Assembly: GCF_016026235.1 (NCBI RefSeq)
Contig: NZ_CP065613.1
From: Escherichia coli
Lineage (GTDB): Bacteria; Pseudomonadota; Gammaproteobacteria; Enterobacterales; Enterobacteriaceae
Direction: 5' to 3' (one strand)
DNA length: 64,000 nt
Part shown: positions 4,025-45,609 of the stretch, one piece after another
Layout: each line of letters starts with the position of its first letter
Numbering within the stretch: position 1 is the first letter of the stretch
Made by a program: the position numbers and the translations under genes
Notes under the pieces: generated by a model
What the model was told of the DNA's origin: nothing
The model's input: only the letters and a program-made list of their open reading frames with translations
The model's database searches: none

Positions 4025-4147
4025 AATCGAGCCCAGATGCCGGATGCGGCGTGAACGCCTTATCCAGCCTACAAATTTGTGCAAATTCAATAAATTGCAG
4101 GAAATACGTAGGCCTGATAAGACGCGTCAAGCGTCGCATCAGGCATC
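4025..4147. repeat. REP/BIME palindromic units in the phr-dtpD convergent intergenic region
   Basis: gccggatgcggcgtgaacgccttatccagcctaca and gtaggcctgataagacgcgtcaagcgtcgcatcaggc; imperfect GC-rich palindromes of the REP family. Confidence 0.8.
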
Positions 4148-25847: not shown

Positions 25848-26035
25848 GCACTGTAGACCGGATAAGACATTATCGCCTTCTCCGGCAATTGAAGCCTGAT
25901 GCGACGCTTAACGCGTCTTATCAGGCCTACGGGAAGCACCGATGTAGGTCGGATAAGGCGCTCGCGCCGCATCCGACAAGCGATGCCAGATGCGACGCTT
26001 ACACGTCTTATCAGGCCTACGGGTGACCGACAATA
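25848..26035. repeat. REP/BIME cluster between sucB and sucC
   Basis: At least four palindromic units (gcctgatgcgacgcttaacgcgtcttatcaggcctac, gtaggtcggataaggcgctcgcgccgcatccgac, and others) within about 190 bp. Confidence 0.8.
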
Positions 26036-42911: not shown

Positions 42912-43457
<546 letters not shown>

Positions 43458-43466
43458 GAGAATTGC

Positions 43467-44258
43467 ATGAGCAGTAACTTCAGACATCAACTATTGAGTC
43501 TGTCGTTACTGGTTGGTATAGCGGCCCCCTGGGCCGCTTTTGCTCAGGCACCAATCAGTAGTGTCGGCTCAGGCTCGGTCGAAGACCGCGTCACTCAACT
43601 TGAGCGTATTTCTAATGCTCACAGCCAGCTTTTAACCCAACTCCAGCAACAACTTTCTGATAATCAATCCGATATTGATTCCCTGCGTGGTCAGATTCAG
43701 GAAAATCAGTATCAACTGAATCAGGTCGTGGAGCGGCAAAAGCAGATCCTGTTGCAGATCGACAGCCTCAGCAGCGGTGGTGCAGCGGCGCAATCAACCA
43801 GCAGCGATCAAAGCGGTGCGGCGGCATCAACGACGCCGACAGCTGATGCTGGTACTGCGAATGCTGGCGCGCCGGTGAAAAGCGGTGATGCAAACACGGA
43901 TTACAATGCAGCTATTGCGCTGGTGCAGGATAAATCCCGCCAGGATGACGCAATGGTGGCATTTCAGAATTTCATCAAAAATTACCCTGATTCAACTTAC
44001 CTGCCAAACGCCAATTATTGGCTGGGTCAGTTAAACTACAACAAGGGTAAAAAAGATGATGCGGCGTACTATTTTGCTTCGGTAGTGAAAAACTATCCGA
44101 AGTCACCAAAGGCTGCTGATGCGATGTTTAAAGTCGGCGTCATCATGCAGGACAAAGGTGACACCGCAAAAGCGAAAGCCGTATACCAGCAGGTTATCAG
44201 TAAATACCCTGGTACTGATGGCGCTAAACAGGCACAAAAACGTCTGAACGCGATGTAA
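43467..44258 (+). CDS. cpoB: Cell division coordinator CpoB (YbgF), TPR-repeat periplasmic protein
   Basis: 263-aa ORF MSSNFRHQLLSLSLLVGIAAPWAAFAQAPISS... with coiled-coil and TPR region. Confidence 0.93.
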   Translation: MSSNFRHQLLSLSLLVGIAAPWAAFAQAPISSVGSGSVEDRVTQLERISNAHSQLLTQLQQQLSDNQSDIDSLRGQIQENQYQLNQVVERQKQILLQIDSLSSGGAAAQSTSSDQSGAAASTTPTADAGTANAGAPVKSGDANTDYNAAIALVQDKSRQDDAMVAFQNFIKNYPDSTYLPNANYWLGQLNYNKGKKDDAAYYFASVVKNYPKSPKAADAMFKVGVIMQDKGDTAKAKAVYQQVISKYPGTDGAKQAQKRLNAM

Positions 44259-44261
44259 TGC

Positions 44262-44302
44262 ATAACACACGACCAGAAGTCGCATTATTTCTGGTCGTGT
44301 CG
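44262..44302 (+). terminator. Rho-independent terminator after cpoB
   Basis: Hairpin acacgaccagaa...ttctggtcgtgt immediately after the cpoB stop. Confidence 0.6.
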
Positions 44303-44422
44303 TGCGAATCATAAGCAGTTGAGTGATCTGCATCGAAATTTTTGTTGCGCTCAAGTCTGAAATCAGTAATATATGCCGCCGTTGCCACGGGATATCAAAC
44401 AAACCGAAAGCAACGAAAAAGT

Positions 44423-44498
44423 GGGTCGTTAGCTCAGTTGGTAGAGCAGTTGACTTTTAATCAATTGGTCGCAGGTTCGAATCCTGCACGACCCACCA
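44423..44498 (+). tRNA. lysT: tRNA-Lys (anticodon UUU)
   Basis: gggtcgttagctcagttggtagagcagttgacttttaatcaattggtcgcaggttcgaatcctgcacgacccacca; cloverleaf with TTT anticodon and encoded CCA. Confidence 0.95.
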
Positions 44499-44526
44499 AT
44501 CGCTAAGGTGGAAGCGGTAGTAAAAC

Positions 44527-44598
44527 GTGAAGGATAACGTTGCATCAGCAACGGCCCGAAGGGCGAGACGAAGTCGAGTCATCCTGCACGACCCACCA
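44527..44598 (+). repeat. Spacer repeat copy 1 ending in a pseudo-tRNA-Lys 3' end
   Basis: gtgaaggataacgttgcatcagcaacggcccgaagggcgagacgaagtcgagtcATCCTGCACGACCCACCA; last 18 nt identical to the 3' end of tRNA-Lys. Confidence 0.8.
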
Positions 44599-44633
44599 CT
44601 AACATAGTTAGTTGTAGTATCCAGCGTAGTATT

Positions 44634-44709
44634 GGGTGATTAGCTCAGCTGGGAGAGCACCTCCCTTACAAGGAGGGGGTCGGCGGTTCGATCCCGTCAT
44701 CACCCACCA
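44634..44709 (+). tRNA. valT: tRNA-Val (anticodon UAC)
   Basis: gggtgattagctcagctgggagagcacctcccttacaaggagggggtcggcggttcgatcccgtcatcacccacca. Confidence 0.95.
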
Positions 44710-44711
44710 CC

Positions 44712-44787
44712 GGGTCGTTAGCTCAGTTGGTAGAGCAGTTGACTTTTAATCAATTGGTCGCAGGTTCGAATCCTGCACGACCCACCA
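44712..44787 (+). tRNA. lysW: tRNA-Lys (anticodon UUU)
   Basis: Identical to the lysT sequence; starts 2 nt after valT. Confidence 0.95.
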
Positions 44788-44815
44788 GTTTTAGCATCGA
44801 AGACAGATGTTAAGC

Positions 44816-44885
44816 GTGTAGGATAACGTTGCGTCAGCAACGGCCCGTAGGGCGAGCGAAGCGAGTCATCCTGCACGACCCACCA
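44816..44885 (+). repeat. Spacer repeat copy 2 ending in a pseudo-tRNA-Lys 3' end
   Basis: Near-identical to copy 1, with a few substitutions. Confidence 0.8.
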
Positions 44886-44936
44886 CTAATTACGGTGGGT
44901 TCGGTGGAAGTAGTTTGTAGTATCCAGCGCAGTATC

Positions 44937-45012
44937 GGGTGATTAGCTCAGCTGGGAGAGCACCTCCCTTACAAGGAGGGGGTCGGCGGTTCGATCCCGT
45001 CATCACCCACCA
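44937..45012 (+). tRNA. valZ: tRNA-Val (anticodon UAC)
   Basis: Identical to the valT sequence. Confidence 0.95.
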
Positions 45013-45015
45013 CTC

Positions 45016-45091
45016 GGGTCGTTAGCTCAGTTGGTAGAGCAGTTGACTTTTAATCAATTGGTCGCAGGTTCGAATCCTGCACGACCCACCA
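45016..45091 (+). tRNA. lysY: tRNA-Lys (anticodon UUU)
   Basis: Identical to the lysT sequence; 3 nt after valZ. Confidence 0.95.
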
Positions 45092-45119
45092 ATTTTAACA
45101 TCAAACTCAGATGTTAAGC

Positions 45120-45189
45120 GTGAAGGATAACGTTGCGCCAGCAACGGCCCGAAGGGCGAGCGAAGCGAGTCATCCTGCACGACCCACCA
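45120..45189 (+). repeat. Spacer repeat copy 3 ending in a pseudo-tRNA-Lys 3' end
   Basis: Near-identical to copies 1 and 2. Confidence 0.8.
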
Positions 45190-45237
45190 ATCTTAAAGAT
45201 TGGCCCCGAGTAAAAATCTTTCAGGTAACACCCGTAT

Positions 45238-45313
45238 GGGTCGTTAGCTCAGTTGGTAGAGCAGTTGACTTTTAATCAATTGGTCGCAGGTTCGAATCCT
45301 GCACGACCCACCA
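45238..45313 (+). tRNA. lysZ: tRNA-Lys (anticodon UUU)
   Basis: Identical to the lysT sequence. Confidence 0.95.
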
Positions 45314-45346
45314 TCCTGAATGATTAAAGCAGCATAATCCCGCAAG

Positions 45347-45422
45347 GGGTCGTTAGCTCAGTTGGTAGAGCAGTTGACTTTTAATCAATTGGTCGCAGGT
45401 TCGAATCCTGCACGACCCACCA
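45347..45422 (+). tRNA. lysQ: tRNA-Lys (anticodon UUU)
   Basis: Identical to the lysT sequence; last gene of the array. Confidence 0.95.
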
Positions 45423-45424
45423 AT

Positions 45425-45455
45425 GTAAAAAAGCGCCCTAAAGGCGCTTTTTTGC
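45425..45455 (+). terminator. Rho-independent terminator of the tRNA array
   Basis: aaaaaagcgccctaaaggcgcttttttg, a perfect hairpin with T-tract 3 nt after lysQ. Confidence 0.8.
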
Positions 45456-45609
45456 TATTCAGGCATCTCTCAATTTCAATTCTTGACCCTGATGACATAC
45501 TCCGCGCTTGCTGCGTAAACAACTTTACGTCGGAGGAATAAGACGCAAAGTGTGGCATTCGGCATCTCATACGTAATTCGAGTGACTTTTCCCCACCATT
45601 CGACTATCT

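Follow-up and report, generated by a model that had tools for sequence, protein, structure and literature searches.

The tRNA-linked repeats (TLRs; Rfam family RtT RNA) go back to an observation by Egan and Landy in 1978, and Rudd compiled a catalogue of them in 1999 (Stenum et al. 2021, PMC8144298). K-12 carries 22 of them at ten loci, with one to five per locus, and their hallmark is an identity of the terminal 18-19 bp with the 3' end of the adjoining upstream tRNA or 5S gene (PMC8144298). RtT, from tyrT, and the 5S-linked RrA/B/F are reported to yield stable fragments, and the involvement of RNase E has been proposed for RrB (PMC8144298). Covariation support and a tandem GA motif have been reported for RtT (PMC7657543), and the role in the stringent response that was once claimed for it (Bosl and Kersten 1991) was withdrawn in 1994 (PMC8144298). 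A strain with all 22 TLRs deleted (delta-22-TLR) has been listed, the first deletion being that of lysW/Y/Z/Q and valT/Z together with the TLRs of that locus (PMC8144298). The family is dispensable in the laboratory. It is more than 40 years old and lies within some of the most highly transcribed enterobacterial operons.

We analysed a 64,000-nt stretch of Escherichia coli DNA (hereafter the window), in which the order of the tRNA genes called by ARAGORN at 44423-45422, Lys-Val-Lys-Val-Lys-Lys-Lys, is that of the E. coli lysT tRNA operon. The K-12 record and more than 5,400 E. coli genomes corroborate the region. All features given here are on the plus strand. The array opens with lysT, a tRNA-Lys(UUU) gene (44423-44498) called by ARAGORN and by the Rfam tRNA model (79.2 bits) and annotated in K-12; its last 18 nt (44481-44498) reappear as a copy in which every element described below ends. 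A 28-nt leader (44499-44526) separates lysT from the first of these elements, the 72-nt copy 1 (44527-44598), which is supported by the Rfam RtT model, its fold, and covariation. Leader and element together make a 100-nt module, present or absent in other genomes, that has the 18-nt direct repeat as its bounds; the last base of the leader, C44526, opens the closing helix of copy 1. The array continues with valT, a tRNA-Val(UAC) gene (44634-44709), lysW, tRNA-Lys(UUU) (44712-44787), and the 70-nt copy 2 (44816-44885, with its pseudo-tRNA-Lys 3' end at 44868-44885), and then with valZ, tRNA-Val(UAC) (44937-45012), lysY, tRNA-Lys(UUU) (45016-45091), and the 70-nt copy 3 (45120-45189, pseudo-end at 45172-45189). 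Copies 2 and 3 are likewise supported by the Rfam RtT model and by their fold, and the tRNA genes downstream of lysT by ARAGORN. Two further tRNA-Lys(UUU) genes, lysZ (45238-45313) and lysQ (45347-45422), have no element 3' of them in this strain. [quoted passage not shown]

The RefSeq K-12 record has nothing annotated in these three spacers, and a PGAP label is found only on a long-form copy 3' of lysQ that is present in some strains. A promoter scan of 44200-45600 returned no sigma-70-like site, even upstream of lysT, where the operon promoter is expected. Because this expected promoter was also missed, the scan is uninformative either way about internal promoters. Three terminator-like matches at the locus were rejected as minus-strand artefacts of a hairpin of the elements (hairpin 1, below).

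The initial annotation had described three near-identical elements of about 70 nt after lysT, lysW, and lysY that differ by few substitutions and end in a pseudo-tRNA-Lys 3' end with its CCA. This description is accurate. The elements measure exactly 72, 70, and 70 nt, and each starts 29 nt past a tRNA-Lys gene, inside the lysT operon. Pairwise alignment of the copies gives 63-67 matches, 3-7 mismatches, and one 2-nt indel. The last 18 nt, ATCCTGCACGACCCACCA, including CCA, are identical to the tRNA-Lys 3' end in all three copies, and the window holds eight instances of this sequence: five are the 3' ends of the tRNA-Lys genes, and the other three lie at 44581, 44868, and 45172. A search of the 64-kb window with a 20-nt core pattern, GCRACGRCCCGWAGGGYGAR, allowing up to 2 mismatches, gave 3 matches, against 0.02 expected from shuffles. 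The differences between the copies either fall in hairpin loops or preserve pairing: with the A>T change at 44819, U.G replaces an A.G mismatch, and both strands of hairpin 3 are altered. The elements are also found in other E. coli and in Citrobacter, Pluralibacter, Phytobacter, Pseudescherichia, and others. Their presence in these other genomes means that they are no assembly artefact, the concern for which conservation in related genomes had been proposed as a check.

Judged by their sequence, the lysT spacer elements are already-known TLR/RtT repeats, in a short form, and the published definition fits them: each lies just 3' of a stable-RNA gene in a tRNA operon, and the 18-nt identity is found in three of three copies. 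With the upstream tRNA included, the Rfam model RF00391 (RtT RNA; curated gathering score of 45 bits) scores copies 1, 2, and 3 at 60.2, 54.9, and 57.8 bits, respectively, and there are no other RtT matches in the window. These scores above 45 depend on cmscan laying the 5' half of the model over the tRNA-Lys body. The lysT-valT spacer alone scores 42 bits (E = 2e-7, model positions 51-130). We regard the 5' half of the full-length alignment, placed on the tRNA-Lys body, as spurious; the real relation is a deletion of about 41 nt relative to the RtT of tyrT. The 5' hairpins A and B of RtT (GAGAACCUUCG..AAGGUUCGA..GAGCG..CGAGA), in the 5' third of the model, are missing from all three lysT copies, in which GGAU runs straight into AACGUUGC. 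Since the missing ~41 nt are those of two 5' hairpins, the lys element is a short form of RtT, and this form without hairpins A and B is common to the lys and Arg(ACG) spacers.

The lys copies retain the conserved 3' core and the closing helix of RtT (model positions ~15-23 and 66-130). They keep the 5' strand, which reads CGUGAAGGAU in Lys versus GGGGAAGGAU in Tyr, the whole 3' core (AACGUUGC-loop-GCAACGGCCCGAAGGGCGAG-small hairpin-CGAGUNAUCC), and, as a third part, the copy of the local tRNA 3' end. The tyrT locus of K-12 holds four RtT copies (133-137 bits) with the same core, which end in the tRNA-Tyr 3' end. Given the match to RF00391 and to the definition of the TLRs, the finding is the rediscovery of a known family.

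Each element is predicted to fold alone into a closing helix of 10 bp and three hairpins, with energies of -27.7 kcal/mol for copy 1 (z -3.6), -30.7 for copy 2 (z -3.0), and -25.5 for copy 3 (z -2.0). In copy 1, the closing helix joins 44526-44535 to 44581-44590: its 5' strand, CGUGAAGGAU, pairs with the copied 3' strand of the T stem and the first three acceptor nucleotides, AUCCUGCACG. It encloses hairpin 1 (44538-44543 with 44548-44553, CGUUGC/GCAACG), hairpin 2 (44554-44557 with 44561-44564, GCCC/GGGC), and a short, GA-flanked hairpin 3 (44567-44569 with 44573-44575). The pseudo-tRNA-Lys 3' end of this copy spans 44581-44598, and its 3' tail of 8 nt, ACCCACCA, is unpaired in the predicted fold.

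We analysed covariation in 31 distinct short-form elements from other genomes, 16 of them behind tRNA-Lys and 15 behind tRNA-Arg(ACG). In these 31 elements, 95% of the cells pair, compared with 88.3% in shuffles (none of 500 reached 95%), and pairing falls to only 27-50% when the partners are slid. Changes on both sides are found at five pairs. Pair 47-54 of hairpin 3 is GC in 16 elements, CG in 7, AU in 5, and UA in 1, and at pair 7-68 of the closing helix the elements behind Lys have U-A and those behind Arg have G-C. The closing helices of Tyr and Lys also differ by a compensatory exchange of G-C for U-A. The element is an old, conserved, structured RNA module. It does not have the T-arm/acceptor-like structure for which folding had been suggested as a check: the T loop and the 5' strand of the acceptor are absent from the predicted fold, and the element is therefore not what is usually meant by a tRNA mimic. 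Both ARAGORN and the Rfam tRNA model call only the seven real tRNAs at the locus and find no tRNA-likeness in the elements. The proposal that they act as decoy RNase P sites thus finds no support, and the absence of both a tRNA-model match and an acceptor stem led us to rule out a tRNA pseudogene as well as an RNase P decoy.

The copy rule was checked INDEPENDENTLY with a core-pattern scan of the representative genomes of 100,044 species, which gave at least 120 matching stretches. Among the matches listed, 101 have a tRNA within 700 nt upstream, and 81 of these end in the exact last 18 nt of that tRNA (Lys(UUU) 36, Tyr 27, Arg(ACG) 13, Pro 4, and Ser(UGA) 1). Seven more of the 101 do so with 1-2 mismatches, and those that remain of the 101 mostly look like degraded copies. 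The hosts among the matches listed are mostly Enterobacterales, along with Orbaceae, Thioalkalivibrio, Marinobacterium, and other Gammaproteobacteria. Some 20 of the 120 listed matches were discarded as chance hits: they fall in GC-rich DNA from unrelated phyla, without a tRNA in the vicinity. About nine further copies, in several genera, end in AACTGCCAGGCAT, the 3' end of 5S rRNA, and sit right after a 5S gene wherever upstream sequence was available. These copies ending in AACTGCCAGGCAT correspond to the rrA/rrB/rrF class of PMC8144298.

In Citrobacter youngae, the element behind a variant tRNA-Lys gene (...ACGCCCCACCA; acceptor GGGGCGU/ACGCCCC) carries that variant in its pseudo-end, and the element behind the neighbouring standard gene has a standard one. 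Each pseudo-end thus follows the gene it belongs to, which points to local gene conversion or local duplication. At the other extremity, the first 20 nt of long-form copies resemble an inverted copy of the cognate T arm (17/21 in Tyr, 19/21 in one Lys copy, 16/21 in Ser). One could imagine the TLRs as a self-propagating or locally templated module that takes the local 3' end and a complementary 5' strand and acts in cis on the maturation or folding of the neighbouring tRNA; we consider this unlikely. The basis cited for it is the occurrence of the rule in five tRNA species and 5S rRNA, the tracking by the pseudo-end, and the covariation of the 5' strand, all of which may reflect function, gene conversion, or a transposition-like mechanism.

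The array itself varies widely. Units 1 and 2 of the window (Lys-element-Val) are tandem duplicates, and unit 3 lacks Val. Among the E. coli genomes covered here, the arrays range from five Lys and two Val genes, through 4/2, 3/2, 3/1, and 2/1, down to a single Lys. The 100-nt module is present or absent at each Lys gene across strains and genera, and the spacer beyond it is conserved. E. coli SCPM-O-B-8794 has the arrangement Lys-35-Val-2-Lys-51-Val-3-Lys-element-48-Lys-element-33-Lys, Citrobacter werkmanii has an element solely after the first Lys, and Pseudescherichia vulneris solely after the last. A hairpin-3 variant of copy 1, GACGAAGTC, is common to E. coli and Citrobacter, so that copy 1 predates the split between the two. 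Strain 13TMH22 has 155 bp inserted after lysQ: a long-form RtT (47 bits), with a 54-bp direct repeat made of the tRNA-Lys end and the terminator on its flanks. E. coli lysV, in the valU operon, is followed by a long-form RtT, and since the terminators of the two operons are identical (PMC4176162), an exchange between the lysT and valU loci explains this insertion.

Overall, arrays and 100-nt modules are gained and lost by recombination. The initial annotation had seen in the elements the footprints of an unequal recombination that amplified the tRNA-Lys genes, and had suggested comparing array architecture across genomes. Unequal recombination at the array is borne out by the tandem units, the range of copy numbers, and the gain and loss of modules at the 18-nt repeat, and the comparison across genomes shows the same variation of arrays and modules. 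Recombination as the origin of the element is not borne out: the element belongs to a known family, shows compensatory changes, and has its core behind Tyr, Arg, Pro, and Ser tRNAs and 5S rRNA.

Taken jointly, the best explanation, and in our view a very probable one, is that the elements are short-form TLRs that fold in the lysT precursor, would be processed to a fragment, and recombine at the DNA level. They are transcribed within the lysT polycistronic precursor, each as a compact domain. RNase P would cut where the following tRNA begins, and the AU-rich leader may be attacked by RNase E or by exonucleases, with a discrete element fragment of about 70-100 nt as the expected outcome. The 3' end of this fragment would presumably be handled like that of a tRNA, because the helix and CCA would stop the trimming. 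In the DNA, unequal recombination and gene conversion would be driven by the 18-nt copy together with the identical tRNA genes; these two processes may hold each pseudo-end equal to the tRNA it belongs to, and may insert or delete modules and whole Lys-Val units. Stable fragments with a tRNA-like 3' end, which the initial annotation had envisaged, would agree with what has been published for the relatives of the lys elements. A Northern study of the lysT operon with probes in these spacers makes no mention of the repeats and describes no stable small species in the wild type (PMC4176162).

The alternatives differ in how much of this they retain. If the elements were functionless scars, partial duplications of the tRNA-Lys 3' end left by unequal crossing-over, one would expect the tandem duplication of units 1 and 2, the wide variation of array length among E. 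coli genomes, and modules gained or lost exactly at the 18-nt repeat, and one could accommodate a listed strain without all 22 TLRs (PMC8144298). But a scar of the Lys genes does not explain why one core of some 45 nt recurs after tRNAs for Tyr, Arg, Pro, and Ser, as well as after 5S rRNA, in several orders of Gammaproteobacteria, nor does it produce compensatory changes in two helices or confine inter-copy substitutions to loops. The variant GACGAAGTC, shared by E. coli and Citrobacter, shows in addition that copy 1 is old and conserved, and we hold the scar explanation to be unlikely. Still less probable, and in our judgement extremely so, is that the elements are what remains, or a miniature, of a mobile or integrative element targeting the 3' ends of stable-RNA genes, with the 18 nt as attachment or target-site repeat. 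The module of about 100 nt is indeed flanked by direct repeats of the target 3' end, a single conserved core is found behind many different genes, there is insertion/deletion polymorphism (including the 155-bp insertion of 13TMH22 with its 54-bp repeat), and the repeat begins in the T loop, as it likewise does in one class of tRNA-targeting integrases. Against this, no integrase or other gene is associated: the direct repeats enclose no cargo but 82 nt, with ORFs of 20-54 aa that overlap the tRNAs and whose start and frame are not conserved. The repeat stops exactly at the mature CCA in most copies, and the element also occurs at 5S rRNA genes. Its 5' strand changes in step with the local tRNA, a match that an incoming element would not carry, and the case after lysQ is more simply explained by exchange with the lysV end. 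We therefore ruled out an attachment-site remnant as the main reading on the 5S copies, the CCA end, the lack of cargo, and the match of the 5' strand to the local tRNA.

A role as regulatory small RNAs acting in trans, or as protein sponges, in the manner of the 5S-linked RrA/B/F is also very unlikely for the elements. These relatives undergo processing, and in vitro they bind both Hfq and CsrA (PMC8144298), and Pasteurellaceae homologues of RtT have been detected as expressed small RNAs (PMC4986893). However, all 19 TLRs of tRNA operons score below 0.01 for CsrA binding with InvenireSRNA (PMC8144298), which makes a role as CsrA sponge unlikely. The sole GGA motif of the lys elements is buried in the closing helix of the predicted fold, and the claim of a stringent-response role for RtT was withdrawn (PMC8144298). 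A small protein was considered as well: the tpr product of tyrT, MRSFDQGSTRAPARERCRRQRPEGRSAQR, has RQRPEGR in common with ORFs of 26-37 aa over the lys elements. We rejected a tpr-like protein on the variation of starts (TTG or GTG) and lengths between the copies, and take RQRPEGR as a by-product of the GC-rich core.

As short-form TLRs, the elements contribute nothing beyond published knowledge, and the practical consequence is one of annotation: the three spacers should be labelled as short-form TLR/RtT elements. Natural strains that lack single modules and have intact flanking spacers are ready deletion controls for any effect of the modules on the maturation of tRNA-Lys and tRNA-Val. The interest that remains is in the match of each copy to its own upstream gene.

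Among the described systems, one parallel is 3'ETS-leuZ, along with other small RNAs from tRNA spacers (Lalaouna et al. 2015, via PMC8144298), which are also spacer or trailer RNAs made from a tRNA precursor by processing. They share no sequence relationship with the lys elements, and 3'ETS-leuZ base-pairs to RyhB and RybB, whereas no such target is known or predicted for the lys elements. The 5S-linked rrA/rrB/rrF, located between the dual terminators of rrnA, rrnB, and rrnD (PMC8144298), share the family, the core, and the 18-nt rule, but have a 5' part of their own with exposed GGA motifs; RrA/B/F bind CsrA and Hfq, whereas the TLRs of tRNA operons are predicted not to bind CsrA (PMC8144298). 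The RtT of RF00391 (rttR, in the tyrT operon) is another parallel. Its 3' two-thirds are those of the lys copies, including the hairpin CGUUGC/GCAACG, GCCCGAAGGGC, the GA-flanked hairpin, GAGUNAUCC, and the cognate tRNA end, and in both the 5' strand forms a closing helix with the pseudo-T-stem/acceptor strand. The lys copies differ in lacking about 41 nt (model ~24-65, hairpins A and B) and in ending like tRNA-Lys, where the tyrT copies end like tRNA-Tyr; the release of a stable RNA is documented for the tyrT copy only. The TLRs of K-12 as a whole likewise lie in tRNA operons directly 3' of a tRNA gene, in several copies per locus, with the cognate 18-nt end and the core. The lysT copies are short forms of about 70 nt, compared with about 130-170 nt for the tyrT copies, and nothing essential differs.

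In the Citrobacter youngae ATCC 29220 locus (L100, reverse strand 300-480), a variant tRNA-Lys gene (GGGGCGU.../...ACGCCCCACCA) is followed by a tRNA-linked repeat (TLR) whose pseudo-end, the last 18 nt that copy the 3' end of a stable-RNA gene, carries the same variant, and the adjacent tRNA-Lys gene and its element both have the standard sequence. The pseudo-end varies with its own upstream gene.

In long-form TLRs the first ~20 nt closely resemble the reverse complement of the T arm of the cognate tRNA (K-12 tyrT locus, L003 1067-1495; also the stretches L012 and L121), with 17 of 21 positions matching for Tyr and 19 of 21 in one Lys copy. Because of this inverted T-arm copy, the sequence of a long-form TLR reads like the 3' third of a tRNA whose T loop has gained an insert of ~60 nt, with an inverted copy placed in front.

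Some E. coli strains have a 155-bp insertion 3' of lysQ, the last tRNA-Lys gene of the operon, e.g., 13TMH22 (L001 2654-2779). In that strain the insertion is a long-form RtT (47 bits), which PGAP annotates as 'RtT sRNA'. A 54-bp direct repeat, which combines the tRNA-Lys 3' end with the operon terminator, borders it on both sides. The insertion is absent from the window strain, where the corresponding point lies after 45458. Complete E. coli genomes (hits H11-H50) differ in the size of the array itself, which ranges between Lys x5/Val x2 and a single tRNA-Lys. Its make-up is Lys x3/Val x1 in O157:H7 strains and Lys x4/Val x2 in several laboratory derivatives of K-12.

Three arginine-rich small ORFs of 26-37 aa with GTG/TTG starts (plus strand, 44527-44607, 44829-44942, and 45133-45213) overlap the elements of the window. 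They and tpr, the 'protamine-like' ORF of the tyrT repeat, have the motif RQRPEGR in common, probably as a by-product of the shared GC-rich core.

Rfam identified other RNA features in the window. RalA, the small RNA that acts as antitoxin in the type I toxin-antitoxin pair RalR/RalA (63634-63812, plus strand, 216 bits), suggests by its presence that DNA lying downstream of the tRNA operon, ~18 kb away, is prophage-derived. The CpoB/ybgF intercistronic RNA thermometer (43358-43496, plus strand, 142 bits) sits between pal and cpoB, as expected at that locus. There are also two copies of naRNA4, a REP-derived nucleoid-associated RNA family (21503-21573, minus strand; 25947-26017, plus strand), and the ES036 small RNA (4073-4115, plus strand). 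A YrlA (Y RNA-like) match from lysZ to lysQ (45258-45398, plus strand) scores 44 bits, below the gathering score of 69; its most likely source is the alignment of real tRNAs to the tRNA-like module of that model.

Copies of the core are also found directly behind 5S rRNA genes, where they end in the 5S rRNA 3' end AACTGCCAGGCAT; among the matches listed, they occur in L030, L032, L033, L051, L052, L061, L072 (E. coli), L080, and L093. The gene order in L080 is 23S-5S-element-tRNA-5S. These 5S-ending copies, which score under the Rfam RtT threshold, are the counterparts of the published rrA, rrB, and rrF TLRs.
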